The notes below the pieces were generated by a model. The model was not told where the DNA came from. It saw nothing but the letters and a program-made list of their open reading frames with translations, and made no database searches. A stretch of 63,516 bases of DNA, the filler included, from Diploschistes diacapsis (Eukaryota), in assembly GCA_023645945.1 (NCBI GenBank). It is 20 parts of 20 records of this genome, joined end to end, with 100 filler letters (N's around TTAATTAATTAA, not from the genome) between each part and the next. Parts side by side here need not be neighbours in the genome. Positions count along the whole stretch, not along the records: positions 35,869 to 55,652 come from JALAIB010000360.1; 19 more parts are not named here. One strand, 5' to 3'. The position numbers and the translations under genes were made by a program. This document shows positions 27,894-63,516 of this stretch, in pieces; position 1 is the first letter of the stretch; each line of letters opens with the position of its first letter.

Positions 27894-27993
27894 NNNNNNN
27901 NNNNNNNNNNNNNNNNNNNNNNNNNNNNNNNNNNNNNTTAATTAATTAANNNNNNNNNNNNNNNNNNNNNNNNNNNNNNNNNNNNNNNNNNNN

Positions 27994-29384: not shown

Positions 29385-29839
29385 TGTTACGATCCAAGTG
29401 ACTAGGTGGTAGCCACTTGGCACTTCACAGCTGATCGGGCCTAACCCGGCCACTCCTTGTATATAGTCCAATTATGGTGACGTTAGTCACGTGATGAATA
29501 AAAAGCCTCAGAGGCTATTTTACCTTTTATAAATAAAACGGAAGAACGGTAATTCTATCTATCTATTAATCTATTTTATTAGGAAGTAGTTAACTATATA
29601 AGAACGTCGTTATAGCTCTTATAAATTTTAGTATATTTATTTTTATAGATATCTTTAGCGATTGTTCGGAATCAATTTATATTCTTTATTTTTATTAAAC
29701 GGATAATAATCTTTCTAAAAATCAGAACAGACTTGTTATCGATCTACTTCTTCTCCTACTTGCACTCCTCTTCTAACAGAGACCAAACCCACCTTGATTA
29801 ATACCTCGTGTCTACATTGTAGAGATAGAGATCATAACA
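29385..29839 (+). mobile_element. LTR family B, full length
   Basis: TGTTACGATC...GATCATAACA terminal inverted repeat; multiple copies in the window. Confidence 0.8.
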
Positions 29840-30619: not shown

Positions 30620-30905
30620 GAAATATAGTGTCCGTATTAATATCAGTGTTTTAAAAATTTTAATTATAATGTCCGTGTCCGTGCTTTTATTGCAGTATAG
30701 TATCCGTGTCAGTGTCCGTGTTTTAAAATTTTAGCTGTCGTGTCCGTGTCAGTGTCCGTGTTTTGAAAATTTTTGCTGCAGTGTCCGTGTCAGTGACCGT
30801 GGCACGAAACGGCCAGCCTAGTCAGTATCCGTGTTTTAAATTTTTTAGTGACGGTGTCCGTGTTCGTGGATTCACGAGAATATAATATCCGTATTAGTAT
30901 CTGTA
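30620..30905. repeat. Subterminal repeat array (GTGTCCGTGTCAGTGTCCGTGTTTTRAAA) and terminus (ACGGCCAGCCTA, ends 30820) of a probable hAT-like DNA transposon
   Basis: The same repeats and 12-bp terminus occur at 60051-60333. Confidence 0.6.
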
Positions 30906-30914
30906 ACAGATAGC

Positions 30915-31832
30915 TGTGACAGTCCTCCGGGCGAGCGGAGGAACTCAGTCCTAGCGCCGCGCCAAGGCCGCTCCAAGGCCGTAGGTTATAAGAGGAGTTT
31001 TTAGAGAAGAATCTTCTCCTTTTTTTTCTAAAGATTAGTTCATAAATATTATAATCATTAATATCATATTATTACATTTTATTCTTTATAGTTCTAATTT
31101 TTTTTCCTTTAATGAAGCAGTGGTCCGGTAAAATGGCGAAAGGAAAGCGAAAAGCCGCGACTACATTTCGAAATACTGGAAAATCGGTAGCAGCCGCAGA
31201 TCTAACGGATACCGTTATTTCATCCCGACGGGAATTATTAATGCATAACGAGATATTAACGGAATCCTTACGGTCAGCAGCCGCAGAGGCCTCGCGAAGA
31301 AAAGAAATCGTCGAAAGGAAACGCGTCGCCATCGAAATTCCTAAATTAGGCGAAAAAGATTAATTTTAAAATTCTATTATCGAAAAAGAATATCTATCGG
31401 ACGCAGATTTTTCGCGATTTAATCGGGAACGTATTTCTTATTTTAAAAGAAAACGCGAGAGATTATTAAAGTAAAAAAGAATCTAAGATCTAATTACGGA
31501 AGTAACGAATCTAGAAATTTAAACCACGTTTCCGACAATCGAAACGGAATATAAAACGTATGTTATTCGTAAGCGAGCCGTATTTAGCGAATACGTTATT
31601 AACGTTACGAGATACCTTCGACTTTAATTTTTATTTAAATATTAAAAGTTATTTATAACGGAATACCGAGAATGATTTATAATAAATAATAATACACGGG
31701 AAATAAATATATTATATTTATTTATAATTACGTTATAAGTTCGTTACGTTATATAGGCGTTTCGGGGAAATTTTTTAAAATTTTAATTCGTTTATAAAAC
31801 TAAAATCGAGATAAATACGGTCACGTAAAGTT
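30915..31832 (+). mobile_element. Ty1/Copia-like 5' end: short putative LTR (30915-30983) plus degraded gag
   Basis: Homologous to 26909-27090, with GGTTATAAG following the putative LTR. Confidence 0.55.
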
Positions 31833-31932
31833 NNNNNNNNNNNNNNNNNNNNNNNNNNNNNNNNNNNNNNNNNNNNTTAATTAATTAANNNNNNNNNNNN
31901 NNNNNNNNNNNNNNNNNNNNNNNNNNNNNNNN

Positions 31933-32351
31933 TACGATTTAAATATTAGATTTAACACGTTCTAGCCATGCCTTATATATAGACTAATTATAATAACACT
32001 AATATCCTGATGAATAAAAGGCCTTAATAGCTTATTTATTACTAACAGGTAAAACGGGAAATCGGTAATTTGATTTAATTATTCGTCTTCACTAAAAAGA
32101 AACATTAAGTTATATAAGAACGTCGCCATGGCTTTTATAAATCTTAATATGTTTATTTTATAAACATCCTTAATTAAAGCTCGGGATCAATTTATATTCC
32201 TTACCTCTATTATTTAAAGTTTTCTTTTAGAGATTAATACAGACCTATAACCAATCTACTTCTTCTTCCTGTCTACACTCCTCTCTACTAGAGACCAAAC
32301 CCACCTTGAACTATACCTCGTATCTACCTAGTAGAGATAGAGATCATAACA
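31933..32351 (+). mobile_element. LTR family B, 5'-truncated or eroded
   Basis: Ends GAGATAGAGATCATAACA and aligns with 29430-29839. Confidence 0.75.
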
Positions 32352-33144
32352 TCCGTTTAATAATAAAGATTCTTTAATTCGTTTTCGCCGGATCTTGGCG
32401 TTAATTTTATAAAACGAGTTAATTTTTATTTTAACGTTTCTTCGTTTTGCGTTAGTCCCGAAAAGCCGCGGCGTTTATTATTATACATCTTAACCTCGGG
32501 ATTATGTTTCGTCTATTTATAATTGGAAGCGTTTAAGTGATCGTAAACATTTTTTAAATTTTCTTTTTTAAAATTTCGATATTTTTTTTCAGCGATCGAA
32601 TTCGTCGTTCGTTCAATCATCCGTATTGTTTTTAATTTTAATCGAGACTGTCTAAACTCCGCTTTTCGTTCATCAATAACGGGTACTTGACGCGTTATTG
32701 ATTCGTCATTCATTTCTTTTAGAGACGGTTTCTTAAGAATCCTCCTAACCGCTTTAAACATCCGATCTCGTCGGTCCGCATCTTGCTGATGAAGGCATAT
32801 CAATCTGTTATCCTTCGGGCCAAGCCATATCTGATGTTTCTGAAAAAACATGTTTCTTATTAAGATGGGTACGTTTCCTAGTGTCGTTAAGATGATCGGT
32901 TAGTCTTTAAAGCGTCTTCCTTAGATCTAGACGCCCGTTATTATTTCTTTCGGAATATTTCGTCCGTTCTTGCCCTCGAATCCTCGGGTCCGGATATTCG
33001 AAAATAGATCTATTATAATACTATCGAGAAACTTCGCGATATATCGGCCATACGATTCGTTTATTACAATATACACGTTTATTCCGGAATTATATAGACT
33101 ATTATTAATTACCGCTACTCTATTTAAAAAATATGATATAAAAC
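32352..33144 (-). mobile_element. RIP-degraded Ty3/Gypsy aspartic protease region
   Basis: SLYNSGINVYIVIN (DSG to NSG by G>A), then GFEGK and TTLGNVPILIRNMFFQKHQIWL. Confidence 0.65.
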
Positions 33145-33244
33145 NNNNNNNNNNNNNNNNNNNNNNNNNNNNNNNNNNNNNNNNNNNNTTAATTAATTAA
33201 NNNNNNNNNNNNNNNNNNNNNNNNNNNNNNNNNNNNNNNNNNNN

Positions 33245-33642
33245 ATTTTATACTTAAACGATATTTTAATTCATTTTAATAGAATATTCGAGAATGATCA
33301 ATAAAAAATTAAAAAAATATTTCGACGATTCGACAAATACGAACTTCGCTTAAAATTAAAGAAATACGTATTCCATAAAACAGAAATTAATTTCTTAAAA
33401 CACGTTATAAAACGAAAAAACGTCAAAATCGACTTTAAGAAAATATAATCTATTCTTAAATAATTAACCCCGAAGAACGTAAAAGACGTTCAATCTTTTT
33501 TAAGATTCGTTAATTATAATCGATACTTTAGTAAAAATTATTTAAAAATAATAGAACCATTAATAAAATTTATTAAAAAAACTTATTTTATAAATAAACA
33601 TAAGATTAAGAACGGGCCTTTTAGAAATTTAAAGATTTAACG
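33245..33642 (+). mobile_element. RIP-degraded Ty3/Gypsy reverse transcriptase fragment
   Basis: YLNDILI (YLDD), KLKKYVFHKTEINFLKHVI and TPKNVKDVQSFLRFVNYNR. Confidence 0.85.
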
Positions 33643-33939
33643 TGAGACAGATCAGCCCAGGCGTGCCAAGCCACCGGGGTCACGTGACGGCAGGGTCACA
33701 TGACGGGTACCAACCGTGTTAAGGATGTTAGGGGGTGGCTATGTAGGCGGGTAGAACCCGAACCCCGTAGGGCTGGCACTTACACACTATTTATTCCTGC
33801 CACCTTCCCACTTAAATAGTTTCTTCTTTAGCTTTTCGAATCGAGACCTTTTACCTATAAATGTTTAGTTACACGTAATCCTTTCGGATCAGGCCCAGCT
33901 TCCGATAATATAATATTCCATTCCTGCGCTAACGTTTCA
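33643..33939 (+). mobile_element. Solo LTR, family A variant, following the RT fragment
   Basis: TGAGACAG...CGTTTCA ends; the 3' half aligns with 720-933. Confidence 0.75.
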
Positions 33940-34556
33940 TATTCGAAAAGCTTACTTTACTTTCATATTCGTAACGAGAATTTAAAACGTCAACCGAATT
34001 AAATATTTAAGTAAATTTATGATAATCGGAACTCGAAAATATTACCCGCCGACCTATTATAAATAATAACTCCCGTTAATAAAAAGGATTAAAAGAAAAA
34101 AAGAAAATTGATAATACCTCCGTTTTTTAAAAAATTAATCGAGATACCATCCATTAAAAAATACGATTCAATAAATAAATCGTTAGTTGGTTAATAAATT
34201 TATAAAATATCCCGCGTTATAATAATCATTAATGTCAGGAATTTTTAAAGGATTTAATATTAATAAAAAATCAGTATCGGGACGAGTCTAATGAAACCCC
34301 CGTGATAATATTAAACGAAACAGATTCTCTTTTAAAAACTTAACGAAAGAATCGGTTAATTAAGATATAATTACGGAGAACGTAATAAACCTATAATCGT
34401 AAAAACGAGCAGAAGAAATCCATTAACGAATTAAAAATAAATTAATAAAATTAATANNNNNNNNNNNNNNNNNNNNNNNNNNNNNNNNNNNNNNNNNNNN
34501 TTAATTAATTAANNNNNNNNNNNNNNNNNNNNNNNNNNNNNNNNNNNNNNNNNNNN

Positions 34557-35102
34557 AAGTAATATTAATCATCACGACGATCATATTCTTTTATAGAATC
34601 TAAGAACGTATTTAATTAAAAATAACGCTAAAAAAGATTTAAAGAGGCAGAAACATCTATTACGAAAGAATAACGGGTATCTTTTTAAACAAATCAGAAA
34701 AAAAGGTAAAGATCGAGGTAGAAATTGATTAAAAAAAAAGCATCGCGCTTATAAGAAACACAAGTATCTAAAAAGGGGGGTAGTGAAATAGCCCAACCCA
34801 AGAACTTGCTAAGCCACGGCAGGATTAATGTCCAGATACTTACTAAACCACGGCAAGATTAATGCCTAGATGCTTGCCAAGACACGGCAAAATCAGGAAA
34901 TGGTTATATAAATGGGTAATTCCCGAACCCCGGTAAGCTAACATTTATACTACTTAACGGTACCTTCTTCCCATCTAGATAGTTTCTTTTTCAGCTTTTC
35001 GAATCGAGATCTTTTACCTATAAATGCCCAAGCTACAGCTAATCCTTCCGGATCAGGCCCAGCCCCCGGTAGAGCAGCATCCTTTCCTGCGCTGGCGTTT
35101 CA
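34557..35102 (+). mobile_element. Gypsy 3' UTR, PPT and LTR family A (34784-35102)
   Basis: Colinear with 310-933, with fewer 34-bp units. Confidence 0.82.
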
Positions 35103-35341
35103 TCTTTCGTGCTATTAAATATTATTCTTATTAATCTTTTAAAATATTTATGATTATTATAAATTCTCGAAAATCTATTATAAATAATCCATCATTATTA
35201 ATCTTTAATAATTTAGTTTAACGCGGTTTTTTTGTTATATAATCTAGCCGTCTGTTCAATACGTTAGCTCGTTCGTTTGTTTTACCTGCGATCTTTTTAA
35301 TCGTGAAACGGTATCGTCCGAAAATTTCTAACCAGCGAAAC

Positions 35342-35768
35342 TTTTGGGCAACGCATGTATTGAAGTCTAAATATCTAGAGATCTAATTAGAAGGAATAGT
35401 CTGCATGCGAGCTCTTATACCAATAGGATCCACTAAGCCCTATAGACTTGCACTACTCCCGATTAGGATTAATAGAAACCCTAGTAGGTTCAGCTGAACT
35501 GAATCTGAACCTGAGGTTTAGCTGAACTTCCTAGCTATGTATTCTGCCTGCCTGCTTAATATTCCCTCACGGGCGAAACTATCGGTATGTTTACCTAGTT
35601 TAGCTGGATGTCTTTTGTATTAGTCTAAGTTCTTTGACGAATATGTCGTGTTTGGCGTAGTTTAGTGGTTTCGTTAATCCGTCGGCAATGATCTTGTCTG
35701 TAAGTATGTAAATAATATGAATACGGTTTCGTTGAATTAGGTCCCGTATATAATAATAAGTAATATCG
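35342..35768 (-). mobile_element. Ty1/Copia RNase H end plus 3' LTR (35342-35561)
   Basis: Reverse complement of 28500-28900. Confidence 0.85.
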
Positions 35769-35868
35769 NNNNNNNNNNNNNNNNNNNNNNNNNNNNNNNN
35801 NNNNNNNNNNNNTTAATTAATTAANNNNNNNNNNNNNNNNNNNNNNNNNNNNNNNNNNNNNNNNNNNN

Positions 35869-36243
35869 ATTAGGGACTGATGTATCTGCTGGTGGGGAAC
35901 AAGAGGGTGGTGAAGAAGAATAGGGAGTGGTCGAGGGTTGGTCGACGAGCGCCGGATGGTGGGGGAGGGCTCGGGGGTAGGTTTGGGAGCTGTCAACATC
36001 GGAGTCGAATCCTGAGGATGAAGATTGACGCGAGGACGGACGTGGAGATGTGGTAGAAGAGGAGGAGGATGAGCGGATCGCTTTGAGTCTGACTTTCGGC
36101 TCGGTTTTTGTTTTCCGTCGAGACTGCTTGTGAAATTGTCCCAGTCTGTTGCTGACCGCTGAGGAAGACTGCTCGGAGGATGACGAGGAGGCTGTTGAAG
36201 GGGTTGTAGAGGACACCGGAGGTGTGTCTTGACGAGAGTCCAT
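35869..36243 (-). CDS. 5' part of a Ser/Pro-rich hypothetical protein, truncated by the contig end
   Basis: ATG-started ORF open to the gap with coding-like GC content; no recognisable domain. Confidence 0.5.
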
Positions 36244-40684: not shown

Positions 40685-43578
40685 CTAAAATCGGACATGA
40701 AACCGCTTGGGCTTCTCATCCGGTGGTGATTCACTGTCCTTAGCAGCCGAGGGTTCCTGGTCAACCGATAGCGCCGGCTGCTCGGTCGAGGGTTGCGCTG
40801 CTTGCGTCCGAGGGACATCGTCGACTTCCTGTTGGCTCGAAGCATCGGCTTTGCTCGTCTCTTCCCTATCCTGGACTACCGCATGGTCTGCTGCCTCGTC
40901 TTGTTTCGTAACTTCCTCGGCTGCCTTTGCGCTTTCCGTCTGCTGAGTCTCTTCGCTCTTGGGATTCTCCGTCTCTGACGGAGGCGTCAATATTTCTACC
41001 TGCTTGAAGTCGGTGTCTGATCCGCTAATATTACTCGAGCCCGACGTATCGCCAGCAACAGGCGGTAAGTTGCCGATAGGGAAACTTTGCCGGCTTACAA
41101 TAACTCCAGGGCCTTTTGGTTTGTCCGGACCGATTGCACTCAGCTTTACCATCGCCTTGCGCGTGAGGAGGCGCAAGCCAACCGTTGCGATGGCATTCCA
41201 GTCACTGTCTTTCTTTTTTGGGGTTTCTTCAACCGCGTCAGTAGCCTTGTCCTCGGGCTGCGCTGTTATAGGATTTTCGACGGGCGGGTCCGTTGATACA
41301 ACGGCCTCTTCTCTCAGGTCTTTGACATCTTCCATGCTGCGATAGCCTGGAGTGGGAGGCGCCTCCATAGCATCTGTGTTTTCAGGTTGAGCAGACTGCT
41401 TTGGCGTCTCCTCCTTTGCAGAAGCTGATTGCGAAACTTCCTTGAGAGACTTCGTAGTTCTCTCCTCGTCGCCTAAGCCACTCTTCATAAAGGCCAGATT
41501 ATATTTCTTGGCAATCTGGATAAACTTGGTGGTATTCTGCTGGAGAAAAGTCTTTGCTGCATCCTTGACGGGCGCTCGTGGTTGATCCATGGTTGCTTTA
41601 ATTCTGAGGTGTAGGCTGTAAGTCCCTGCGCGAAGATCGAGCTCGGCATTCACGCTACGACATGTGTTGTAGCTGCTGCTTGACCGAGCCAAAATCTCAC
41701 CTTCTCCATCCTTTTCAAGTCGGAATTCGAGTGTGAACCCGTATTGCCCTTCTAGACCTCTGAGAGATGTTCAGTTCAATCGCCAGGGGGGGGGGGGCAA
41801 ACGTGGATTCAATTAACATGCTTGACGTACCTGATGTACCGATCATCGAGTTGAGAAAGAGAGATGACAGTGCGGTCATCTTGATCCAAGGTGAAGACGA
41901 ACTTGGTTTCATTGAACCTAAATTGCCGAGGGATGGAAAAGTTTACCCAGCATTGAGCACACGACCAATCGGGGCCGATCAGTCTTGTACGGTCAAATAA
42001 CTGGAACTTGCGGAGAAGATCCCTGTCTGGGGGCCCGCGTTAGCGAATATACTACGTTGGAGGGAGGGTCGCGTGGTTGTTCTTACAAGACATCCAAAAT
42101 ATGCCATCATCACCGAATCTATGGCCAAGCTTCTGCATCAGATCAATGGTCCACTCTTTGCTCCCATCAGAGTAAGGCCCAGTCCATTCGCTGTTACCCC
42201 AAGGGTTCCGCACAAGGACCAGTCGCTGTGGCGAGCCGTCAATGACCAGCTCCTGTGCCTTCATTACAGAATACGCATGGCAGCTGTGAAGGCCCTGGGA
42301 TTCACCTTTGCTATTTGGCCAACTGGGCGTCCAGCAACCAAATATGTATTCCTGATTGCAGTGAAGGAGCTCTTCCCACATCCTGTCCAGGTCAAGGATG
42401 TCCTCAGTCTTAATCTCTGTAGTGATACCGCCAGTCAGATCCTCGATAGCCTCGCCGGTGAACCCACCTTCGATTGCCTGGTAATCACCGTGAGCTTTAG
42501 CATACGCTTTTTCGAGGAGCGGTAGCCAGGTTTCGTTCTCGTCACGGCACTGTGAAAAATAGAGAGCATCCGCACCGCTTAGAAAAGTATTCGTGTACTT
42601 TTCTTCATCCATGCTTCTGAGAAGTCTTGCCTCGAAAGCATTTCCCCAGTAGCTTGGCGCTGCAGCGTCTGTGGAATTCTCCAGGTTGAGGCGACCCTGT
42701 ACCGGGTTTCGGCAGTACAAAAAGTCGTCTACAATTTCATATATCCATTCTCCATCTACGACGGTGAGCTCTCTCATATCCGCAATCAAGGGTGCGTCCT
42801 TACCCCGGTGGAAAACAAATCCGTATACACCCACTTTCTCATCACCATCCACGTGCACGTAATTGTGGTGCAAACCTTCCTTGAGGTTGGTCAAAGCAGC
42901 CACTGCTGCCAGAAACCAGCAATCGCCACCTGTACCCTGCCGCACGTCGTCTGCCTTTGCACCGTTGACGAAGAGCTTTGGCGAAGGGAAGATCTGTCGA
43001 GTGCGGGCTACAGACTGGGGAGGGGGAGAGTAAGGGTCTCCCTCCGGGTCAGGGACCAAGCTGCGAAGACAAACATCCTGATCGTCAAGCGCAAACTCAG
43101 GGTCTCGGAACTTCTGGTTTTTGCGCTCGCAGTCCTCTATGATGGACTTGACTTTCTCGCGGCACCGCTCCACGGCTGCATCATAGCTGCTAATCGCCTT
43201 CTTGGATACAATCTCCTCTTCAATCTCCTCACAGAACCACCTCTCAGCAACATCGTTCTCGGGTAAAATCCCCACGACCTTGCCGTTACGTTTGGATATG
43301 ACAAGCTTCCACTGGTCCTCACTGACTGTGTCAACCGGCTTTTCAGGGGCTGCTTCCACCTTTTGAGGAAAGTTTTCAACAATTTTCCTAGCCACGGCTG
43401 CGTTGTTCTCGAGCCATCGCGGGAGGTCTTCCAACGTCATGGCCTGGTCCGACGAACCCTGAGTTGCCATACCCCCAATTAAGGAGGTCATGACCGATAC
43501 CATGTAGGAAAGTGTCTTGTCCATGTCGATACGCTGGCCAACGCCCTCCATGGGCGGTCTGCTGTTGTCTTCCGTCAT
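40685..43578 (-). CDS. Calpain-like cysteine protease (peptidase C2) with domain III and an acidic low-complexity tail, multi-exon
   Basis: Catalytic triad contexts QGTGGDCWFLAA, HSCHAYSV and RNPWG; also WLPLLEKAYAKAHG and SQLDDRYI R|GLEGQY across an intron. Confidence 0.92.
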
Positions 43579-44331
43579 CCTTTATGGCCGCGTCGTACAG
43601 AAATGACGGTACAGAAATGACGGACTACGTGACTAAGCTCTGTGCGCGGCAGTACCGGGATGGAGAGCTAATAATGTACAAAGGCTATTATTCACCTAGA
43701 TTGAATGCAACAGAAAAGAAAAAGCTTTACCTGGGCGGATGTATGTAGAAGAAAGAAGATATTGAAATGAAGCACAAGGGTTGGTGGCTGCATGAATATA
43801 TTCTTCAGCTTAGCGTTATAGTACTGTATGCGATCGGTGGAAAGCTTAACCGCTTCTGTCAGCAGGCTCGGCTGAAAGAGAAGGGCTTCGACCGTGCCAC
43901 AGGGAGGGCCAATGCCCCATAGATTCGTGAATGGGCGATGCATCATCAATCATTAATGCAAGGCTGTGAGACTGTTAGACGTGTCGTAGTGGATAGACTA
44001 TCTACTAGTAGCAGAGAAAAGAGGAGAGAGAAAAGAGGCTTAGCAATAAGAACCCTAGAGTGTGGGGGCCAAAAAGGTACGGTACGGTACGAATAACGTA
44101 TTCCACCACACAACGGAGCACAATCCCTGCACCTTCGTAAAGTGTATTTCTTAAAGGCGGAAGAACGGGGTAGTGTAGTTGAGAACAGATTTAGCTTCGT
44201 GCAAATATGGAAGCGCTCGACCTAGCGCAATTACATTATAGTGTATGACCCGTTTCCTGGTGAAACACGTTAAGCCTCATGCTTGCTTATTCAGCGCACT
44301 CAATTAAACCTTGAATTGAAGTCCCTTGTGT

Positions 44332-50653: not shown

Positions 50654-51295
50654 AACAGTTGACGTAGTTATAAGATGGTATCAACTATGCATTGAATCTG
50701 GACGATCGGCTTCAAAACTTCCAGACTTTGTCAGAACAAAGAACCGATAATGCCCAGTGTGTTAATTGGTGTTTCCAAGCCTGAAGAATGCAGTCTACGT
50801 AGAGCACCTCGGCAAGACCGCTTATTACCCGTGATGACAGCCAAATTAGTCTTGCTTTACCGAGAAGTAAGCCAATAACTTCTTGATGGGCCAGTACAAG
50901 AGCAAAAGTTACTCATGTGTAGATACAACCGCATGATCTCTTTAAACCGTGTCGCTGAAATAGTCATTGTGGTGAATCAGCCTAACTGTTCTATCGAATC
51001 GAGTGGGCATTGTTCCCTAGGTTCTATCTCTTGTAGCACGCTAGAAGAAACTCCCAGACTTCCTATTACCCGTACATATAATCAAGTAATATAATATCTA
51101 AGAAAGCCATTTGCTCGCATTTTACGGGCATACCAGCGAACACACATACCATGGCATACCATAATTGACCAGTGACTGATACTACCGGTGCCAAGAGCGA
51201 ATCCGGAGGACACCAAAGAGCACTACACACGCCTATATTACCGAAATACTCGTTCCCAACCAGCGCTTCGGACTCTTGAACCCTTCTTTGCTTAT

Positions 51296-53134
51296 TCAAG
51301 ATGCCGCACTGGGGGCAACTGTGGCTGATGGAAGCGGCGCACAGCAGTTGATCGCCGGTAGGCCGAACAAGCCAACGCCTCCTTCGACAAATTCGATTGG
51401 TGTCGCAACCGCGTTCCAATGATCACGAAGCTCGTGGGCTACTGTGGGGTCCGGGGAGTCTCCGGCTGGATTTGCTCCACGGGAGCTCTCCGCTGTGCCT
51501 GTCTTACGAGGAGGTTTTTTGTGCGCCGATGCGTGGGTGCTTGAATTATGATGGTCTGTACTATATCCCTGGAAGATATCAGAATCATCGTTCAAATCAG
51601 AAGTTGATGCGATGTCGTCCTGTAATAGTTGTGGATAAGTGACCGAGGTCATTACCAGCATAGGAGTGCTCAGCGGAGCCTTCGTTGTTTCTATTGCAAA
51701 GCCATAGGTAGGCTCAGGGACTGCAGACGCCAATGCCGTTAGGGGAAAGCCTAGAATAGCAAGCCAGCGCCCAATCTCAGGACCAGATAGAAATGTAGAT
51801 ATGACCAAAGCGGCACCCACAGGAAAGAGCATTGACGGTATTCCGTTGCTGGCAGACGCCTGATTGTTGGGACCGCAAGCAAAGGTGCTGGTACATCCTG
51901 GGATGGATTGATCTAGGATCAGTGCCGTAGTGTTGTGCTCTGGGGGTGGCACTCCGTTGAAGTCATCGGCCATAGGAGCTGACGCGCGAACGGTCTGAAG
52001 AAAGGCTAGATATATCAAAAATAGACTGATAGAGCTGCGGGCTCCAATCTTCACCTTCGCCATAGACATCGATAGAAAATTTAGTGCTAGAGGAAGTATG
52101 GCCATGTTTTGATTCATACTTAGCCGGTGTAACAACCATGAACGGCTATCGCTGTGATGCCTCTCCATATCTTCGCCTCTTTCTCCTACTATACTAGATC
52201 CGCCTTCGCCTTTGAAGTCGGCAATATCACACGAATCATTTGTTTCACTAACGCGCGTCAGGATCGCCTCTCTTCGGGTCCAATCGTTCGATACAGGAGA
52301 CGCATGTGCAGTGTCAAAGAAGACTGATGCGAATGATAGGACGGAGTTTTCGCACAGGAGCAGTGCTGCCGTTGTTGCAAATGCTGTTCCCCATATCCAT
52401 TGAATCGATAAGTTTTCTGTCTCTCCTGATGATCCTGAGGTCAGGCCTCCTCCTCCTCCTCCTCTGATTCTGCCGCCCTTCTTATCGGTAGCATTATTTC
52501 GAATTGCCAACTCGAACTTGAGGGCGCTGGTTTCTATGCCCACATCTTTTAAGATCTCTGGCTGTACCTTGTCAGTATCCATTGCGGCTCTCGCTAATGG
52601 CGAGCCCAAACATGCAATCAATGTCAGGTGAAAAGGTCGGCTTCTTGAAACTTGGATAGTAATCATCAAACTAGCGAGCGTAAATAGACTGTTCGATCTC
52701 AGTCGATTAGCTTCTAAAAACTGCCCCATGGCACCTGGACCTGGCTGATGTAGAAAAGGCCAAGAGGAAGTATCTTCAGCGAGACCAGCCACCACCGTAG
52801 TGATGACATCGGTAACCTCATTAATAGTGTTTTCAATAGTGCAGGCCTTCTTAGAATAGGCGTCGTGCGGGACAGTCAAAAAAACCTCAACCGGGATTTC
52901 AAATAGTGCGATATTGGACGCCGCTTGGTGTACAGTTTCAGAACTGAATGTGACCATAAATACGGGGTCATGGTGTCTAGCATCCATAGTGCCCTGGCTA
53001 ATCGCACCAGCGGAAGTTGTATCAAGGTGTCGACCTTGAGATGTGGTGATGGATGGTGCCGATGGAGCATAACCTGCTCCTGAAGTGCTCATGTGACCCC
53101 CAATAAGACATAGTATTCCTAGAAGTCCTAACAT
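51296..53134 (-). CDS. 612-aa single-exon secretory-pathway hypothetical protein with four repeated hydrophobic-hairpin modules
   Basis: Long uninterrupted ORF filling the HEM2-CIA1 interval, with good ATG context (CCACAATG), an N-terminal hydrophobic leader and N-glycosylation sequons. No recognised domain. Confidence 0.75.
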   Translation of the reverse strand: MLGLLGILCLIGGHMSTSGAGYAPSAPSITTSQGRHLDTTSAGAISQGTMDARHHDPVFMVTFSSETVHQAASNIALFEIPVEVFLTVPHDAYSKKACTIENTINEVTDVITTVVAGLAEDTSSWPFLHQPGPGAMGQFLEANRLRSNSLFTLASLMITIQVSRSRPFHLTLIACLGSPLARAAMDTDKVQPEILKDVGIETSALKFELAIRNNATDKKGGRIRGGGGGGLTSGSSGETENLSIQWIWGTAFATTAALLLCENSVLSFASVFFDTAHASPVSNDWTRREAILTRVSETNDSCDIADFKGEGGSSIVGERGEDMERHHSDSRSWLLHRLSMNQNMAILPLALNFLSMSMAKVKIGARSSISLFLIYLAFLQTVRASAPMADDFNGVPPPEHNTTALILDQSIPGCTSTFACGPNNQASASNGIPSMLFPVGAALVISTFLSGPEIGRWLAILGFPLTALASAVPEPTYGFAIETTKAPLSTPMLVMTSVTYPQLLQDDIASTSDLNDDSDIFQGYSTDHHNSSTHASAHKKPPRKTGTAESSRGANPAGDSPDPTVAHELRDHWNAVATPIEFVEGGVGLFGLPAINCCAPLPSATVAPSAAS

Positions 53135-53371
53135 TGTGGTAGTGACAACAGCTCAACAGACTATGCTGTGAACAAGGTTTATAAAGACAACGAGGCAGTC
53201 TTGTTCAGTTGAATATATTTGGATATGGAGTGTCAAAGGTCGGGTGTTGATGGAACAGTAGTGGATTGGGCAAATGAGGAAAGAGACGAGCGGTTAGAAG
53301 CCATCTTATATGATTGCATAGCGCCGAATTACTGCGATAATTGAGGTGAAAGAAAGATTCAAGATAGTGAA

Positions 53372-54709
53372 TCATGGTGTGAGCGCCCACACTTTGACTC
53401 CTCCATCATCGCCTGTACTAATCAGTATTTCTTCGCTTTCATCATGCTTCCCTCGGTCCGCTCGCTTAGCCCAAGCGATGTGATTCACCTCAAAGACATC
53501 ATGAGCGCCATCGAATTCCGCAACAACAACCCACTCGGTCACGTTGGCGGCCTGTGGCAGCGCACTCTTGTCATACCCAGTGACGTCCATCGGAGCACCC
53601 CCTTGACTCTCGCCATTTAGAGCGTCAGTCTCATCCTTCATTCCCGGGCCTATAGCGATAGGGTCCTTCCGCCATCGCTCCTCGTAGACTACAATTTTCC
53701 CATCACCTCCAGTACTGGCGATTCTTCCCGACTTCTTGCTCCACGAAATTGCATAGATTGCTCTATCATGTCTCTTTGGTAGTTGCGCTTCTTCCAACCA
53801 GTCTTCCTCTATCGAGCCCGTCCTTATTATGCTCAATTTGCTCTGTTCTGGGCCCTTCTCCCTTGGTACTCTCCGCCAGATGCGTATAGTTACATCATCC
53901 GAACAGCTTGCGAGTCTTGGGCCACTGGTCTTCCGCCTTTCAATCCAAGCATTGCGCTCAGGGGTTTCGCCAGTAGATGCCATTAGGCTTTCGGTGATGC
54001 TCAAGGCTTCCCACTCGACCATCCATACTGTGCTACTGTGTCCTTGTAAGAGGCTTATGCATGTCCAGTCGTCAACATCGTTCTTCCATAGCCTGACGTC
54101 GTCATCGTAACTGCAACTAGCCAGCATTTCTTCTTCGGGATGCCATGAGACACACTTTACATCGCCAGAGTGCTCTTGAAGGACCGCAACAGTCTCGTAA
54201 TCATCTTCATCCATCTCTTCCCAGATCCATACACTCTTGTCCCTCGAGCAAGTAGCGAGCAAGTTCCCACCAGCATTCCAGGAAACACCCTTTACTTCGG
54301 AGTCATGGCCATCTAGGACAAGTGCAAACCTCCATTCCTCGTCCTCCTCCTCTTCTTGATTTTCTCCCTCAAAGTTCGCGTCTGTGAAACCCACTCCATC
54401 CCCACCGGTCACATCGTGGTCCTTTCTCCAGACTCCGACACTCGAGTCGAAACTCCCTGTGGCTAAGGTGCTTTCATTCTGCAAATTAGGCTTCCAAGCA
54501 CATGTTCTTATGCTGCGCTTATGTCCCCCAGTTATTGACGAAAGTTGGGTGAAGGAAGTCAGGGAATATATTCGTACAGTTCTATCAGAAGCGCATGTTG
54601 CTAAGATTGGTAAATATGGGTGAGGAGCCGAGATCCACGCACGAGATAAAGGAGTGGGCGACATAGAACCGACCACCTCTAGCTGCAGCGGTAGAATTGG
54701 ATCGTCCAT
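53372..54709 (-). CDS. CIA1: Cytosolic Fe-S protein assembly WD40 protein
   Basis: GGHKRSIR, LATGSFDS, LDGHDSEVK, LATCSRDKSVWIWE, VLQEHSGDVKCVSWHP, AHDVFEVNH and STGDDGGVKVW. Confidence 0.95.
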   Translation of the reverse strand: MDDPILPLQLEVVGSMSPTPLSRAWISAPHPYLPILATCASDRTVRIYSLTSFTQLSSITGGHKRSIRTCAWKPNLQNESTLATGSFDSSVGVWRKDHDVTGGDGVGFTDANFEGENQEEEEDEEWRFALVLDGHDSEVKGVSWNAGGNLLATCSRDKSVWIWEEMDEDDYETVAVLQEHSGDVKCVSWHPEEEMLASCSYDDDVRLWKNDVDDWTCISLLQGHSSTVWMVEWEALSITESLMASTGETPERNAWIERRKTSGPRLASCSDDVTIRIWRRVPREKGPEQSKLSIIRTGSIEEDWLEEAQLPKRHDRAIYAISWSKKSGRIASTGGDGKIVVYEERWRKDPIAIGPGMKDETDALNGESQGGAPMDVTGYDKSALPQAANVTEWVVVAEFDGAHDVFEVNHIAWAKRADRGKHDESEEILISTGDDGGVKVWALTP

Positions 54710-55652: not shown

Positions 55653-56600
55653 NNNNNNNNNNNNNNNNNNNNNNNNNNNNNNNNNNNNNNNNNNNNTTAA
55701 TTAATTAANNNNNNNNNNNNNNNNNNNNNNNNNNNNNNNNNNNNNNNNNNNNTAGGAATATTATAGAAAATCTAAATTAATTAAATTAAGGCTTTAAAGC
55801 CCTCTACGCCCTAATATAACCCCCAAAAAGCAGTTATTACACCCCCTATCCAGCCCCTATACCTCCCTCGCCGCCTTTTCCTTTTCTTATAAAGGCCCTC
55901 TACCCCCGTCGTCGCTTTAGAAGGGAATTACGCCGCCGCGACAAACCTCCCTATTCTTTAAAACGACGCGCGGAGTTAAATATAATAACAGACTAAATAA
56001 AAGGCTTATAACACCGTTCACTAGTTCTGTTATCGTCGTCGCCACCGACAACACCCCGAAGTTTTTAACGCAGGCCTCCACTTTTTCTTCTTTTTTAGTT
56101 TCCTTTTTTTTTCCTTTATCCTTTTCTAGCCCTTTATCACCTTACTTCTTTTTCCGTAGCCAGCCACTTAGGGTATCCCTATCTTTCTTTTTTAACGGCG
56201 ACGACGTAACGTCTTTGTTTATAAAATCAGCGCTAGCGACGAAACGCGCACGATAACCGAACCGAGAGAACGCGTCGTAATCGTAAGAAACGAGTTTCAC
56301 CACGGTAGACAAGCGACGGAAACGAAAAGCTATTAAAGTTAAAATAGAGGAGAAGTGTAAAGGGTAGAATACGACAATGTGCCAAGATGGCTATACGCAG
56401 GGCAGGTTCATGCTAGGACTAATTACTAAGAGGAGAGAGTAAGAAGGGCAAAATCCCCCTTCAAGTACTAGTAAGCTAAGACCCTGAGCGCCGCTTGTCC
56501 GACTTTTGGCATGCTCTTCGCTTAATTTTATAATTATCTTTCTTTTTTTTGTTTTAGTTCTTTAGCATCACGAAAAGTTTTTCAAGCCAAAAAAAATTTC

Positions 56601-56712
56601 TGGCGAAAGTGCCTGTTTCGCGGGTTTCGCCCATTTCGCCAGCTTTCGCCAAAACGTTTGGCGAAACGTGGCGAAACTGGCGAAACCGGCGAAACTTGGC
56701 GAAACCGGCGAG
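56601..56712. repeat. Array of GGCGAAAC units in both orientations; probable DNA-transposon subterminal binding sites
   Basis: About four TTTCGC(C) units followed by about six GGCGAAAC units at 9-10 bp spacing. Confidence 0.6.
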
Positions 56713-57063
56713 GCCAATCAATTTATTACGTAATCAAAAAATAAAAAGGCATTTTTTTAATATTTAAAAAAAAAAAAATTTCGAAAAAAATATTAAAAAA
56801 TCTACTAATTTAGCGCCGGATAACTAGCGCTAAGAACTCGCTAAAGCTCTCACGCTACGAATATCCACGCTTACGTAATATAAAATACGCCATTCTTAAT
56901 ATTTTCGCGACAATATATAGTACCTGTTCAACCCCGTTAAATCCGATACCACTAGTACTAATCNNNNNNNNNNNNNNNNNNNNNNNNNNNNNNNNNNNNN
57001 NNNNNNNTTAATTAATTAANNNNNNNNNNNNNNNNNNNNNNNNNNNNNNNNNNNNNNNNNNNN

Positions 57064-57802
57064 CGAAATAATATTATCATTTAATTAAAAACAAATATTA
57101 AAATATTAAAATAACGTTAACGAGCCTACGGCGGTCGGGAATAAAAACCTCGATATATCTTAATAATAACTTCGTCGGTTATAATATTTCGTCTTCTACG
57201 GACACTATTACGACCTCTACACCTTTTATATTTAAATCAAATATTTCAACGACAGCCACCTTGCCGCCGACTCACAAAGACATAATGAAATCAATCTACC
57301 ATATCGACAAATCTACAGCTCAACTTAATCAGAACCTCGGATTTAGTTTTAAAAATTATTGCTACGTTACCGTCTCCGTTCGCCTAAATTTAAATAAAAA
57401 TACGTATCGATTCTATCTCGATAACGGATGCACGATATCATTTATAAATAAAAAATTCTTACAGAAATACAAGCTTAAGGCGAGGATACTTACGATATCG
57501 ATACCGATAGAAATCATTAACGTTAAAAAAAACAAGCATTCGGCCTCGAACTTTATCGTATTAAACATGTTTTTCCCAACCAACGAAGGAAGATTTACGT
57601 AGATTCAGAAAAAGTTATATATCGTAAATAATTTACGAGTAAACGTGTTTATCGATATCGATATATTATATTTAAAATAATTTATCGTCGACTTTTAAAA
57701 ACAAATTACTATTATCGGAAACTACGCCGGCTTAAAAATTCCGATCTTAGTTATAACGTAAAAGAAAATTACGGCTATAGTATTTTCTTAAAATACATTT
57801 AT
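57064..57802 (+). mobile_element. RIP-degraded Ty3/Gypsy aspartic protease region
   Basis: FYLDNGCTISFINKKFL (LDSGC), then LYIVNNLRVNVFIDIDIL. Confidence 0.75.
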
Positions 57803-58274
57803 TGTTTGGCAACGTAATGGATGTATTGAAGTCTAGAGGTCTATCTAGGAGGTTATCTTACTTTGCAGACTTTTATCCTTATGGGATACGCTAAGCCCTA
57901 TTACCTACATTATTCCTAAACCGGTCTAGTTGGGATTCTAAAAGGTTCAGTTAAACTGAACCTCCTTCTGGAACTTAATTAGATTCTTAATTATATCTTT
58001 TGCCTATCTGTTCAACATTTTTTTATAGGCGGAATCGTCCGGCATGACTATATAATCTAATTAGATATCTTTTGGATTAGATCGAGTTTCTTAATAAAAA
58101 CGTCGTGTTTCGAGTAATTTAATAATTTCGTAAGCTTATTAATAACCATTTTATCGGTAGGGATATAAGACACCCTAATACGTTTTTGCTTAATAAGATC
58201 TCGTACGTGATAATAAGTAATATCGACGTGCTTGAAACGATCGTTGATATTCGCGTGTTTTATTAGATTTAGAG
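57803..58274 (-). mobile_element. Ty1/Copia RNase H end plus 3' LTR (57803-58017), a diverged relative of 27994-28900
   Basis: Minus strand reads KHANINDRFKHVDITYYHVRDL; the LTR starts TGTTGAAC and ends CCAAACA. Confidence 0.8.
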
Positions 58275-58447
58275 NNNNNNNNNNNNNNNNNNNNNNNNNN
58301 NNNNNNNNNNNNNNNNNNTTAATTAATTAANNNNNNNNNNNNNNNNNNNNNNNNNNNNNNNNNNNNNNNNNNNNGTGGATAGTATGATAGGGAGAATAAA
58401 TATTAGAAAACCTTAAGAAATTATAATTATAATAAGGTAGAGTCTGT

Positions 58448-58915
58448 TGTTACGATCCAAGGTACTAGTCGGTAGTACTTAGCACGCAACAGCTAGTCGG
58501 GCATTTCTCAACCATTTTTTATATATAGACCAACCACGGATTAGGGGTTACGTGACTGATAAACTTCCGTTAAGTAGATATTTATCGGGGACAGATCTAT
58601 CGGGATAGATATTTATTAATAATAATTCTATTACGATAATTCTATTATCGATAACTAGCTATCGTTTTAAATTATATAAAAACGTCGTTACGGCCTTTAT
58701 AAATCCGGAACGTGTTTATTTTTATAAATATCTTTAATTATTATTTAGGATCAATCTATATTCGTTATTTCTATCCTTAAAGAGCTTTCTTTCTAAAGAT
58801 AGTCTAAGACCTATAACTACTCTACCTTCTTCTCCTACTTGCACTCCTCTTCTAACAGAGACCAAACCCACCTTGACTCTACTTGTGATACCTTGTATAG
58901 ATAGAGATCATAACA
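58448..58915 (+). mobile_element. LTR family B, full length
   Basis: TGTTACGATCC...GATCATAACA ends. Confidence 0.8.
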
Positions 58916-59685
58916 ATAAGGAGTAGGATTTACTTGCTCGATTAATTTACTCGATGCCTACGCGAATTCAGGCTGTATACGACGCGCAGAGATAACAAAC
59001 AAAGTATTAATAGATACTACGAATAAAGGGCATCAAAATAATCTAAAAAGCGCATTTGTAGGACATTATTTGGGTGCGCATCGCATCTCCAAAGTTGATG
59101 ATGTCTACTATAATTTAGATAAGGACCATTACTTTTGGCACGTGACTGTATGTTATGCACGTACACAGCCATCCCGCCCCCTCTGCGGGTCTTGAGGAGC
59201 CCCCCTTTAGCCCAGCCCTCATCCCCCAATTCACACCTATAATTAGATGGGGATCCACACAACTTTCTTTCTTTCTAAGTTCCCCCCTCCATGGGACTGA
59301 AGTCGGGTACTGCAAAAGTAGCAGGTTTTCTCCAGAGATGTCCCATTTCTTCGACCCACTGCCGGACATCCAGTCCGAGGCCGACCGAAGCATTGTTTTA
59401 GGAAGCGGGAGGTTGGGAAGGTGAATTGGAGGTGCCTACGTTACACACTGTTACACAAGGAAAATAGAATGGGGATGGAAGCATGGGTATTGATATCGTG
59501 GGCTACTACTGTGGGGGCCCCCTATTCGAGACGAGTTCTTGTGAAGTCCATAGTTGGTAAGTATTGCTTGGTATGGGGATGGGGGNNNNNNNNNNNNNNN
59601 NNNNNNNNNNNNNNNNNNNNNNNNNNNNNTTAATTAATTAANNNNNNNNNNNNNNNNNNNNNNNNNNNNNNNNNNNNNNNNNNNN

Positions 59686-60050
59686 GACCCTGCCGTGTCT
59701 TGGCAAGCACCTGGGCATTGACCCTGCCGTGGCTTGGCAAGCCCCTGGGCACTAACCCTGCCGTGGCTTGGCAAGCCCCTGGGCACTAACCCTGCCGTGG
59801 CTTGGCAGGCCCCTGGGCTGGGCTGTATCAGGAGGGCACCGTTAAGTAATGTAGGTGCCAGACCTACCGGGGTTCGAGGACTACCCATCTACACAGCCAC
59901 CCCCTGACCCTGCCGTGTCTTAGCAAGCACCTGGGCATTGACCCTGCCGTGTCTTGGCAAGCACCTAGGCATTAACCCTGCCGTGGCTTGGCAAGCATCT
60001 GGGCATTAACCCTGCCGTGGCTTGGCAGGCCCCTGGGCTGGGCCGTCTCA
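59686..60050 (-). mobile_element. Two nested, largely unmutated family A LTR 5' halves with 34-bp tandem repeats
   Basis: LTR 5' termini at 59830 (TGATACAG) and 60050 (TGAGACGG) on the minus strand. The repeat unit is ACCCTGCCGTGGCTTGGCAAGCMCCTGGGCAYTR. Confidence 0.8.
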
Positions 60051-60333
60051 AATTATTAAAAAATAAATATTATTTAAAAATATTTTGATAAATACACGAA
60101 TACGATAATAAATTTATTAATACGAATATTACGATTAAAATTTTTAAAACACGAATATTTTTACGGATATTATATTATAATAAAAACATAAATACGGATA
60201 TTACGACTAAAAATTTTAAAATACGGATACTTCTACGGATATTATACTGCAGTAAAAACACGGACACGGACACTACGACTGAAAATTTCAAAACACGGAT
60301 ACTACCACGGCCGTGTCCGTGACGGCCAGCCTA
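60051..60333. mobile_element. hAT-like transposon end with subterminal repeats
   Basis: AAAACACGGACAC repeats ending at ACGGCCAGCCTA; same family as 30620-30905. Confidence 0.6.
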
Positions 60334-60466
60334 CTTTTGGCCTAGTACTAGAACGCCCCTACAGGAATACTACACAACCAGGGGCTGAGCCTAATCTGGA
60401 AGGATCACGTCTAGCTGCAATCTGTAGGCTGAATGGTTCAGATTCGAAAAGGTGAAGAAGGAACTA

Positions 60467-60896
60467 CAGTCACGTCCCAAAAGTAATGGTCCCTCCACCA
60501 AAACACACCAAAAATTTCGCATTTCAGGAAGCTCCCAACTCATCAATTAAAGGTTTTAGGAGTTGAAAAGATTATAACGGCCATTTAAAACTACGCTCAA
60601 TATATATAAATTCTTTTAAAAAAACTCCATGCGATATAGAGTGATTAATAACACGATAAACTTTTGAAGTGTACCGCTGCCGCCAAAAATCGCGGCAACG
60701 GTACGTTCTCGATCTTTACAACGTAATTACTTCCGTTATAGCTTTAATAATTTCAAAAAAAAACAGTAGAATAAATATTCATCTTATTATAAAAAGCTTG
60801 AATATTTTTTTAGATTTTTAAAAGGCTTATGGGTGGTATAATAGCTCTATGAAATAGACGCATTTTGGTGTAATTTGGGGGAGGGTCCATTACTTT
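60467..60896 (+). mobile_element. ~440-bp Tc1/mariner-type MITE inserted at a TA in an LTR
   Basis: Imperfect ~45-bp terminal inverted repeats (CAGT..CCAAAAGTAATGG.CCCTCC.CCAAA..ACACCA). Positions 60661-60896 are near-identical to the reverse complement of 63280-63516. Confidence 0.8.
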
Positions 60897-62043
60897 NNNN
60901 NNNNNNNNNNNNNNNNNNNNNNNNNNNNNNNNNNNNNNNNTTAATTAATTAANNNNNNNNNNNNNNNNNNNNNNNNNNNNNNNNNNNNNNNNNNNNGTAT
61001 TTAACGGTAAGAAACAAATAATTAATTAACAATAAAACGGCGATATCGTAATATAAATATAAACTAACGACGCGATAACGAAAAAAACGATAAAAAAAAT
61101 AAGAAAACGAAAATTAAACGTATCGAAACGTATTTCATATTTATATATATATCTATCATTTAATATAGCTTTAATTTTTAATTTTCTATATATTAAAATC
61201 TTAAATTATAATTATAACTTTAATTTATATATAAATTTATTAATAAATCTAAGTATTTATATTAAAAATGGCTTCTCCACCTGCGCCACCGCTAAAATTT
61301 ATGACCGTTAATATTTCGGTCAGAATAACTGCGCCCGAGCCTTTGCGCCCTTTTTGCGGGTCATAATCACTATCCTCCTGAATAGTGCACCTATATTAAA
61401 TTATGTCAGATTATTATTATGCGTCGGGAAGTAGCCTCCAAGCTCCTAAGTGAAGCAGTAAGTATTAACTAAAAAATCTAGGCTTAAAAAACTGGGTAAA
61501 TTTATTCGGGGTTGCACCCTCAAACCCAAGCTTTTTTTATTCGTGGGGATTGCATCCTTGTTACGATCCGAGGTTCCGACCTCGTCACGTCCTAACGATA
61601 TTTCATATATAGTTTATGGCAAAGGTGACACCGGTCACGTGACTTGCTTACTATTCGCGTTTATTTTATAATAAACGGCGAGCAGAGGTCGCCATTCGTT
61701 TAACGATCGCGTTTATTTTTATAAATAACGGATCTCGCGGGTAACGCTCGGCGGGCTTACGATAAATAATAAACGGTACGCAAGTTAGCTATATAAAAAG
61801 GAGTTACAATCCCGTTAAGAATAAATATATTCATTATTTATTATTATAAACAACCTTGTAATCTAAACAAAGAATAAAATTTATTAATATTTTTTTATTA
61901 GAGTAGCCGACCACCATAGAAGATGTACCACCATATGAAATGCTTTTCGTATGTTACTCGCATTCAACGCGCAACCATATCGCAATAATTATTTAAAATA
62001 TTTAATAAAATATTTAATCGTAAAATTTATATAACTTAACGTA

Positions 62044-62206
62044 ACGTGTTTCACGGTTAGCTCGGCCACCCCCAAAGCGCAGCTACTTCAAATCACTACC
62101 GCTAACATTTTACGGTTTTTAAATATAACCTATTCGTCGTAATTAGAATCCAATCGATCTAAATCGAATCTATCTTCTTCTTTTTTATCTTCTTCGATTT
62201 TAGAAA
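62044..62206 (-). mobile_element. pogo/Fot1-type transposon terminus
   Basis: TA|ACGTGTTT terminus; homologous to 2790-2947. Confidence 0.65.
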
Positions 62207-62306
62207 NNNNNNNNNNNNNNNNNNNNNNNNNNNNNNNNNNNNNNNNNNNNTTAATTAATTAANNNNNNNNNNNNNNNNNNNNNNNNNNNNNNNNNNNNNN
62301 NNNNNN

Positions 62307-62639
62307 ATTATATATTTAATTATCTTTTGGCGCGTCGATAAAATCTATTTTTTTAATTTTCGGTAATAATTCGAGGTCGTTTTAAGCGATCGAAATTATA
62401 TTGTTTATTATCGCGTTTTAAAGCTTTTTTTTTGATATATTAGGTTATAAAATAAGAAATATTAAGCTTTTAAACAGTATTTTTAAGAATATTACCGTTA
62501 TAGAGGGCGCCGAGGAGCTCCGAACGCTCGAAGGGCTTTAAACGACGTTGTAGTGGCATAATTAAAAGAATAATAGCAAGAGTTGAATATTTATTTATTA
62601 CCGCTTATGGTGGACCTAACTACTTTTGGCCTAGTACTG
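62307..62639. mobile_element. RIP-degraded Tc1/mariner-type element end
   Basis: Terminus ...CCGCTTATGGTGGACCTAACTACTTTTGGCCTAGTACTG|TA, matching the MITE at 7157-7263. Confidence 0.75.
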
Positions 62640-62892
62640 TATGTTGTTAAAGCTGTCAGAACCAGGACCGTCAGGGGGTAGGGGAGCATTTTTGATTGTT
62701 GGATACTGGGAATGCTGTCAGTAGTATGCTCGCAGCGAATGTGCAACTTGCACCACGCATTCGAATCGTAAATTACCGGCTTACAGAGGTGGTTCGGACA
62801 CCACAATTTCCGCCAGGCGAGGTAGGAGTTGGTGCTGGCGGCGTCTCAATGAACTCGAACTCCTCGGAAGCTTCCGAAGCCGAATTCGACAT
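62640..62892 (-). pseudogene. MTS1: 5' fragment of a sphingolipid C9-methyltransferase gene (cyclopropane-fatty-acid-synthase-like), interrupted by a transposon
   Basis: Exon 62785-62892 encodes MSNSASEASEEFEFIETPPAPTPTSPGGNCGVRTTS, followed by GT-AG intron 62706-62784 and exon 2 YPTIKNAPLPPDGPGSDSFNNI, which stops at the transposon terminus. Confidence 0.75.
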
Positions 62893-63266
62893 CCCGCAGG
62901 GACTTCTATAAGACCACCAAGTGCAGCACGATTGAAAGAATTATGTTCACCACGCCTGGTTTAGTAAAGCTATAGCCTGCGGCTTTAATATTTTGTTTGT
63001 TCCCGTTCATGTCCACAATCGACTTCTTTACAGAGAGGGGGTGAAAGGGGGTTTTTGCTATTAGACAACTAGAGGTATAATTAGGGAGACTTCAACAGAG
63101 ATGCAAAAAGGATTCCGATCCAAATAAAAAGATAGCTTTGAACGTCATAAGCTTGAAATGTCCAGAGAAAATATCATTTCTTTCGCAGTTTCTAGGATGC
63201 TAATTATTTCTTTCTTTCCTTTGAATTTCAACTCTTTCCCATCTACATAAATATATATCGGAGCTA

Positions 63267-63516
63267 CAGTACTATGCCAAAAGTAATGGACCCTCCCCCA
63301 AATTACACCAGAATGCGTCTATTTCATAGAGCTATTATACCACCCATAAGCCTTTTAAAAATCTAAAAAAATATTCAAGCTTTTTATAATAAGATGAATA
63401 TTTATTCTACTGTTTTTTTTTTGAAATTATTAACCCTATAACGGAAGTAATTACGTTGTAACTAACGAGAACGTACCGCTGCCGCGATTTTTGGCGGCAG
63501 CGGTACACTTCAAAAG
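63267..63516 (-). mobile_element. Second copy (right end) of the ~440-bp Tc1/mariner-type MITE
   Basis: TA|CAGTACTATGCCAAAAGTAATGGACCCTCCCCC terminus; near-identical to 60661-60896 reversed. Confidence 0.8.

Follow-up and report, generated by a model that had tools for sequence, protein, structure and literature searches.

A fungal orphan gene may encode a polyprotein cut by signal peptidase into small surface and secreted peptides

In Bradyrhizobium, the cytochrome b/c1 precursor FbcH is a cellular two-protein precursor that is split at an internal signal peptide; it is bacterial, it has one junction, and its products are known enzyme subunits. At the HCV E1/E2 junction, signal peptidase (SPC) acts on a hairpin that forms transiently and then flips into one span (PMC3970144). 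The authors working on astrotactins call an internal signal-peptidase cut uncommon in cellular proteins (10.1101/493858). Fungal KEPs are precursors with internal repeats and KEX2 sites between them, and the same paper defines the Kex2/Ste13 type of site (PMC6339444). The preferences of the SPC have been summarized, in PMC13385932, as an h-region of fewer than 18 residues and a c-region of at least 5. Among open-licence papers and preprints, our search found no fungal precedent for a polyprotein processed by signal peptidase.

The window, that is, the whole stretch of 63,516 nucleotides (filler included) assembled from 20 parts of the Diploschistes diacapsis assembly GCA_023645945.1, carries on its minus strand, at 51296-53134, the 612-aa ORF that an earlier note had singled out; the stop-to-stop frame measures 618 aa and no overlapping ORF of at least 150 aa was found in its other frames. 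The ORF is predicted to be a single exon, judging by its open frame and by the near absence of splice motifs (two donor-like and one branch-like, in an order not compatible with an intron). The note had described an N-terminal leader followed by four modules, each with two hydrophobic segments around a short linker and a signal-peptidase motif at the end of the second. All four junctions are where it placed them, with sites ARA|A at 183, AHA|S at 278, VRA|S at 384 and ALA|S at 469, spaced by 95, 106 and 85 aa, and the leader does precede them, itself beginning with a candidate signal peptide. The features of the locus, all on the minus strand, are as follows.

53372-54709, minus strand: CIA1 WD40 protein, upstream neighbour, given as context only
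53132-53183, minus strand: candidate promoter and start for Met1 (weak), with a TATAAA box lying 44 nt ahead of a CACAATG context
51296-53134, minus strand: orphan ORF of 612 aa, single copy; no Pfam family; one outside relative, of 124 aa
53075-53134, minus strand: candidate N-terminal signal peptide, aa 1 to about 20; the protein's most hydrophobic 11-mer, with (-3,-1) sites at 18-21
52691-53074, minus strand: unit 0 (128 aa, residues 21-148), predicted to be lumenal
52586-52690, minus strand: junction 1, aa 149-183; a basic linker between a hydrophobic and a signal-like segment, then ARA|A
52406-52585, minus strand: unit 1 (60 aa, residues 184-243), predicted to be lumenal, with a Gly run, and an omega-like triad before junction 2
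52301-52405, minus strand: junction 2, aa 244-278; acidic three-residue linker, AHA|S; unchanged in run X2
52106-52300, minus strand: unit 2 (65 aa, residues 279-343), predicted to be lumenal, with RR|EA at 287-290
51983-52105, minus strand: junction 3, aa 344-384; the linker is basic, a textbook signal peptide begins at Met358, and VRA|S follows
51833-51982, minus strand: unit 3 (50 aa, residues 385-434), predicted to be lumenal, with Cys414/Cys420, and an omega-like triad before junction 4
51728-51832, minus strand: junction 4, aa 435-469; ALA|S
51299-51727, minus strand: unit 4, aa 470-612 (143 aa), predicted soluble and secreted, without an anchor-length segment; aa 495-612 are 82% identical to P0003
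49637-50362, minus strand: HEM2/ALAD exon, downstream neighbour, given as context only

Only 237 bp (53135-53371) separate the CIA1 stop from the orphan start, and both the gene neighbourhood and the GC content of the ORF are ordinary. Existing annotation begins the protein further downstream: in the NCBI call P0002, which is 428 aa long, the first residue is Met185 (52580-52582), one residue past the first predicted cut, and a second call, of 598 aa, probably begins, judging by its length, at Met15. Since both omit the candidate N-terminal signal, databases would not list the protein as secreted. Elsewhere in the window, positions 24001-36000 and 56001-63516 are AT-rich blocks (GC about 0.28-0.39), one of which has an ORF (57102-57602) with a retropepsin-like match below cut-off, which suggests decayed retroelements; a calpain-family protease gene (PF00648) lies at 42052-43581 and is followed, at 40685-41770, by a 361-aa frame with no Pfam match that is perhaps a further exon.

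Within the protein, the N-terminal candidate signal is hydrophobic over aa 1-13, has its (-3,-1) sites at 18-21 and lacks a basic n-region. The hydrophobic cores at the junctions are 8-15 residues long, those of the second segments 8-13, and the predicted cuts follow the latter by 4-6 residues, values in line with the SPC preferences given in PMC13385932. The linkers, previously characterized as polar or basic, are indeed basic at junctions 1 and 3, while linker 2 has three residues, is acidic and runs against the positive-inside rule. No hydrophobic core occurs after aa 472, and a GPI-type tail is lacking at the C-terminus. Among the five units sequence similarity is absent (all pairwise z ≤1.4) and no DNA repeat was detected; the modules are alike in layout only. 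There are five dibasic sites (95, 218, 287, 539 and 543; shuffle mean 2.1), all of them inside units and none in unit 3. One of these opens an RR|EA motif of the Kex2/Ste13 type at aa 287-290 (52265-52276), nine residues past the predicted cut at 278, as in a short pro-peptide. The sequons N214, N299 and N401, cited earlier in favour of processing, are present, but together with N241 and N530 they make five where chance gives a mean of 4.35 (P 0.44), and lend it no support.

The layout was compared with shuffled and background sequences. We used a generic junction rule requiring a hydrophobic segment, an uncharged hydrophobic core, small residues at (-3,-1) and a hydrophilic stretch behind. 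Applied to the orphan protein it returns exactly the four junctions; four were found in 0 of 1000 shuffles, and three in 0 of 332 background ORFs of at least 300 aa (109 from 555 kb of the 29-Mb genome itself and 223 from 825 kb of other fungi). When the hydrophobicity threshold was relaxed to 1.5, four or more junctions appeared in 8 of 1000 shuffles and three in 3 of the 332 ORFs, and when the first segment was dropped from the rule four were obtained in 332 of 1000 shuffles. The textbook signal-peptidase consensus is [AV]xA, and among the ten uncharged hydrophobic cores of the protein this motif stands only behind the four that come second in a pair (4/4, against 0/4 for first cores). In the background it follows 69 of 715 hydrophobic segments overall; for segments that come second in a pair the count is 6 of 67. 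If the cores are held fixed and the remainder is shuffled, the strict motif falls behind all four second cores in 0 of 60,001 trials, whereas a loose (-3,-1) rule is satisfied at all four in 6165 (10%); the signal thus resides in the strict motif, which was chosen after the sequence had been seen and in a scan that covered very many genes. The reversed protein has [AV]xA behind none of its four cores. The four-junction architecture is confirmed to be more than chance: two short hydrophobic stretches split by polar residues are found at each of the four junctions, and behind the second stretch small residues occupy -3 and -1 at c-region distance in 4 of 4.

An architecture of this kind could also belong to a fast-evolving orphan membrane protein that is left uncut, or is cut once, in which the four pairs form re-entrant or short helical hairpins and the A-x-A motifs are simply alanines at helix ends. 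In fungi some 10% of hydrophobic segments are followed by such a motif, and three or four of them occur in 6 of the 29 background ORFs with multiple segments; furthermore, the SPC normally spares transmembrane helices, according to PMC13385932, and internal cuts are, as 10.1101/493858 puts it, uncommon in cellular proteins. Yet cores of 8-15 residues are short for stable spans and right for signal h-regions, the motif is confined to second segments and sits at c-region distance, and no family was recognized in Pfam, PDB or Atlas. We regard this alternative as unlikely, if worth keeping in mind. Membership in a known transporter or receptor family, which the earlier note had asked to be checked, was rejected as far as sequence comparison goes: neither the whole protein nor any of the five units taken separately matched a Pfam profile (0 families), and the best PDB hit had an E value of 1.5. 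The best ESM Atlas value was 0.76 for the whole protein, with no usable match for P0003. An AlphaFold model built without an alignment (mean pLDDT 33.8, with 601 of 612 residues below 50) was unusable for telling the readings apart.

Whether the ORF is a gene at all was judged by a codon test; a frame-margin Markov test was inflated by stops in the other frames. The codon score, 0.005, exceeds that of every one of the 85 stop-free non-coding controls; among 93 long ORFs it ranks at about the 10th percentile. Synonymous codon bias is absent (score -0.04, non-coding median -0.043), and CIA1 is also low by this measure (-0.029). The genome has one copy, as searched with the whole protein, with one unit and with DNA. 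Of the five sequencing runs listed as containing this DNA, the best match was a lichen metagenome, which may be its source; none was an RNA run, which is uninformative as to expression. The orphan status proposed for the protein stands up well. Among 1.84 billion representatives, searched at all lengths and also in a shorter-length search, its only outside relative is P0003, a 124-aa protein on a 576-bp contig, which is 82% identical to aa 495-612, keeps the frame with a single in-frame insertion of six residues, has the same end, and begins behind the last predicted site, 469. A search for homologues of near-equal length returned only the gene's own call, and a scan of metagenome contigs yielded relatives in 0 of 37 pattern matches. 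The closest named relatives of the neighbouring CIA1 are from lichen-forming ascomycetes, at about 60% identity, and others are on record at 65-75%. At 80 CIA1 loci from distant fungi (49-60% identity), many of them short, there was no match to the ORF (best E 4.0) and no HEM2 within 8 kb; these loci are too distant to be informative on the place of origin of the gene, and the CIA1-HEM2 neighbourhood seems to be lineage-specific.

The predicted cut sites are covered only by relatives that are about 98% identical, the runs X2 and X3, which were compared as contigs; the listing of this comparison at about 98% DNA identity covered 40 of the 72 differences and, of the 20 rows with gaps, 12. Among the 24 listed changes in the ORF none creates a stop, and 10 are silent by site or 8 by whole codon, where 29-34% would be expected (P 0.13-0.26). 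In the junctions 5 of 7 listed changes are silent and the other two are conservative (L172F and I369V), compared with 5 of 17 outside them (Fisher P 0.075), which is a hint, from these few substitutions, of more constraint at the junctions than elsewhere. Overall, constraint on the ORF is weak by this sequence comparison. In X2, substitutions are as dense in the ORF (1.8%) as in the flanks (1.7%), and the listed indels amount to one 3-nt gap in 1593 ORF bases versus five events in 793 flank bases (P 0.018), with two inserted letters unplaced in the piece that spans the 3' end. The predicted sites are unchanged in X2, but this would be expected anyway at a divergence of 1.8%. A minor deletion of 8 bases in X2, at 53146, falls within the 5' leader of the orphan gene, and X2 has some 25 extra bases at 50829-50851, in the intergenic region before HEM2; the many short alternative contigs across the ORF indicate that X2 contains more than one allele or strain. 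In X3 the ORF differs at 24 of 1424 positions (1.7%), fewer than the 3' flank (11 of 268, 4.1%; P 0.018) and similar to CIA1 (6 of 326). One X3 contig, of depth 4.3, carries a single extra base somewhere between aa 432 and 602 (510 letters for 509 places), which may be an error or a real frameshift.

These comparisons bear on a more sceptical account, in which the ORF is young, weakly selected or decaying and gives little or no functional protein, the junction pattern being vestigial or picked out by chance in a very large scan. The missing synonymous bias, the near-neutral silent fraction, the equality of ORF and flank divergence in X2 and the possible 1-base frameshift in X3 all fit it, as does the recovery of one fragment only from 1.84 billion representatives, despite CIA1 relatives at 65-75% identity. 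However, the ORF has 612 open codons with a codon score above every non-coding control, P0003 preserves both frame and end at 82% identity, indels in X2 are fewer in the ORF than in its flanks, and in X3 the ORF diverges less than the 3' flank (P 0.018) and to a similar degree as CIA1. We consider this account rather improbable, and the ORF is probably a real, fast-evolving, lineage-specific gene.

The explanation that we place first, while according it somewhat less than even confidence, is that signal peptidase in the ER likely cuts the 612-aa chain at about 20, 183, 278, 384 and 469 and so releases five small pieces through junctions of the HCV E1/E2 type. The N-terminal signal would start translocation and be cut near residue 20; at each junction the first segment would halt transfer and the second would restart it as an internal signal peptide, to be cut at its lumenal end. 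The nine segments would then have a consistent topology in which all five hydrophilic pieces face the ER lumen. Units 0-3, with 128, 60, 65 and 50 lumenal residues, would each keep the 35-41-residue junction as a C-terminal tether, and since each half of it is short the tether would probably flip to form one membrane span, like the HCV E1/E2 junction. Unit 4 (143 aa) would be secreted in soluble form, and Kex2/Ste13 may trim unit 2 at RR|EA. A likely purpose would be the co-expression at a fixed ratio of fast-evolving cell-surface peptides, for which adhesion or recognition is a guess. As for the origin, a small gene of the 'signal peptide - short domain - anchor' type was likely duplicated in tandem or fused, in frame, and the resulting units then diverged until they could no longer be recognized as related; the duplication is unproven, as the units are not homologous. 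The proposal that an anchor and an internal signal are processed by SPC, made in the earlier note, agrees with the shuffle statistics and with a consistent topology, its cleavage step being a prediction; the sequons and omega-like runs enlisted for it carry no weight.

Some of the same features could be explained by initiation at internal starts (Met157, Met356/358 and Met435), in which case the internal signals would be the N-terminal signals of shorter isoforms. Met157 and Met358 do head signal-like segments, 27 residues before the cut. Junction 2, however, has no such methionine (the nearest is 185), the TATA box and CACAATG context are found at Met1 only, and shorter isoforms would still contain the later junctions, so we think this very unlikely. 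The TATAAA plus CACAATG pattern has one match in the window and is contained in 11 of 100 shuffles; it was selected post hoc and is weak as evidence.

GPI anchoring needs to be considered in two forms. As a rule, the omega triad of a GPI-anchored protein lies about 10 residues before a hydrophobic segment. A GPI anchor for the chain as a whole was rejected, there being no C-terminal hydrophobic signal and no core after aa 472. A variant of the polyprotein explanation holds that the pieces are GPI-anchored peptides, each first segment serving as an internal GPI signal after the SPC cut, perhaps once signal peptide peptidase has trimmed the second. Junctions 2 and 4 do have small-residue triads, located 8-11 residues ahead of their first segments, internal GPI signals function in engineered DAF-hGH proteins according to PMC2288913, and the genome contains a Peptidase_A22B gene, of the signal-peptide-peptidase family. 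Nevertheless, the triads are missing at junctions 1 and 3, 52% of all positions pass the same test, and the real C-terminus bears no GPI-type tail. The omega-like runs put forward earlier as support are therefore at chance level; GPI transfer may take place at junctions 2 and 4, but we give little credence to the variant as a whole.

A viral origin was suggested by the junction design, which is typical of enveloped RNA viruses (PMC3970144), and the ORF could on this account be an integrated and degenerate gene for a structural polyprotein. Against this, a scan of 2.9 million viral contigs gave relatives in 0 of 2 pattern matches, PDB and the protein collections gave none, the would-be ectodomains measure 50-128 aa with few cysteines, and the gene sits between CIA1 and HEM2 at ordinary GC. 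Such an insertion appears extremely improbable, and membership in the Flaviviridae envelope polyproteins was rejected for lack of homology to viral glycoproteins and in view of the non-viral neighbours.

If the cuts predicted by the signal-peptidase explanation are real, the gene would be a fungal, cellular counterpart of the trick used by viral envelope polyproteins, and its chain would be cut internally four times, compared with once in astrotactin, and it would point to a hidden class of small surface or secreted peptides in fungal secretomes, alongside the Kex2 precursors. The weight of this is limited for now by its being a single orphan gene, with cleavage predicted from sequence. A broader claim, which we find conceivable but doubtful, is that this represents an undescribed and recurrent fungal route, in which SPC would cut the product of one orphan gene co-translationally at four internal signals to give unrelated surface peptides, tethered or GPI-anchored, and one secreted peptide. 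Such a route would be invisible to secretome pipelines, because these score only N-terminal signals and discard multi-TM proteins.

Among known systems, the KEPs resemble the orphan protein in that one fungal precursor yields several small secreted products, and the orphan has one RR|EA site, but its units are not repeats and are separated by hydrophobic junctions (compared with PMC6339444). Assignment to the KEPs was rejected, as there are no repeats (z ≤1.4) and the dibasic sites lie inside units and not between them, so that the distinction drawn earlier from Kex2 repeat precursors holds. The DAF-hGH chimeras indicate that a mid-chain GPI signal can be processed; they are artificial and have one junction, while the omega-like sites of the orphan occur at 2 of 4 junctions, a chance frequency (compared with PMC2288913). 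Astrotactins 1 and 2 are closer in being cellular, with a lumenal domain, two hydrophobic segments and an SPC cut after the second; as described in 10.1101/493858, however, they are vertebrate proteins that are cut internally once, have helices of full length on either side of a cytosolic domain and keep their fragments together by a disulfide, and they share no homology with the orphan. The earlier analogy with flavivirus and alphavirus structural polyproteins was apt as regards the idea of internal-signal junctions, but not as regards two-helix anchors: two stable helices would need longer segments, which makes the HCV E1/E2 hairpin the closer model. The orphan differs from HCV E1/E2 in being a cellular gene with no sequence relation to it, four junctions and cleavage that is here predicted, and in having lumenal pieces of 50-143 aa in place of large disulfide-rich glycoproteins. 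What the two have in common, going by PMC3970144, is a pair of abnormally short hydrophobic stretches with polar residues between them, acting as stop-transfer and signal, and an SPC site behind the second.
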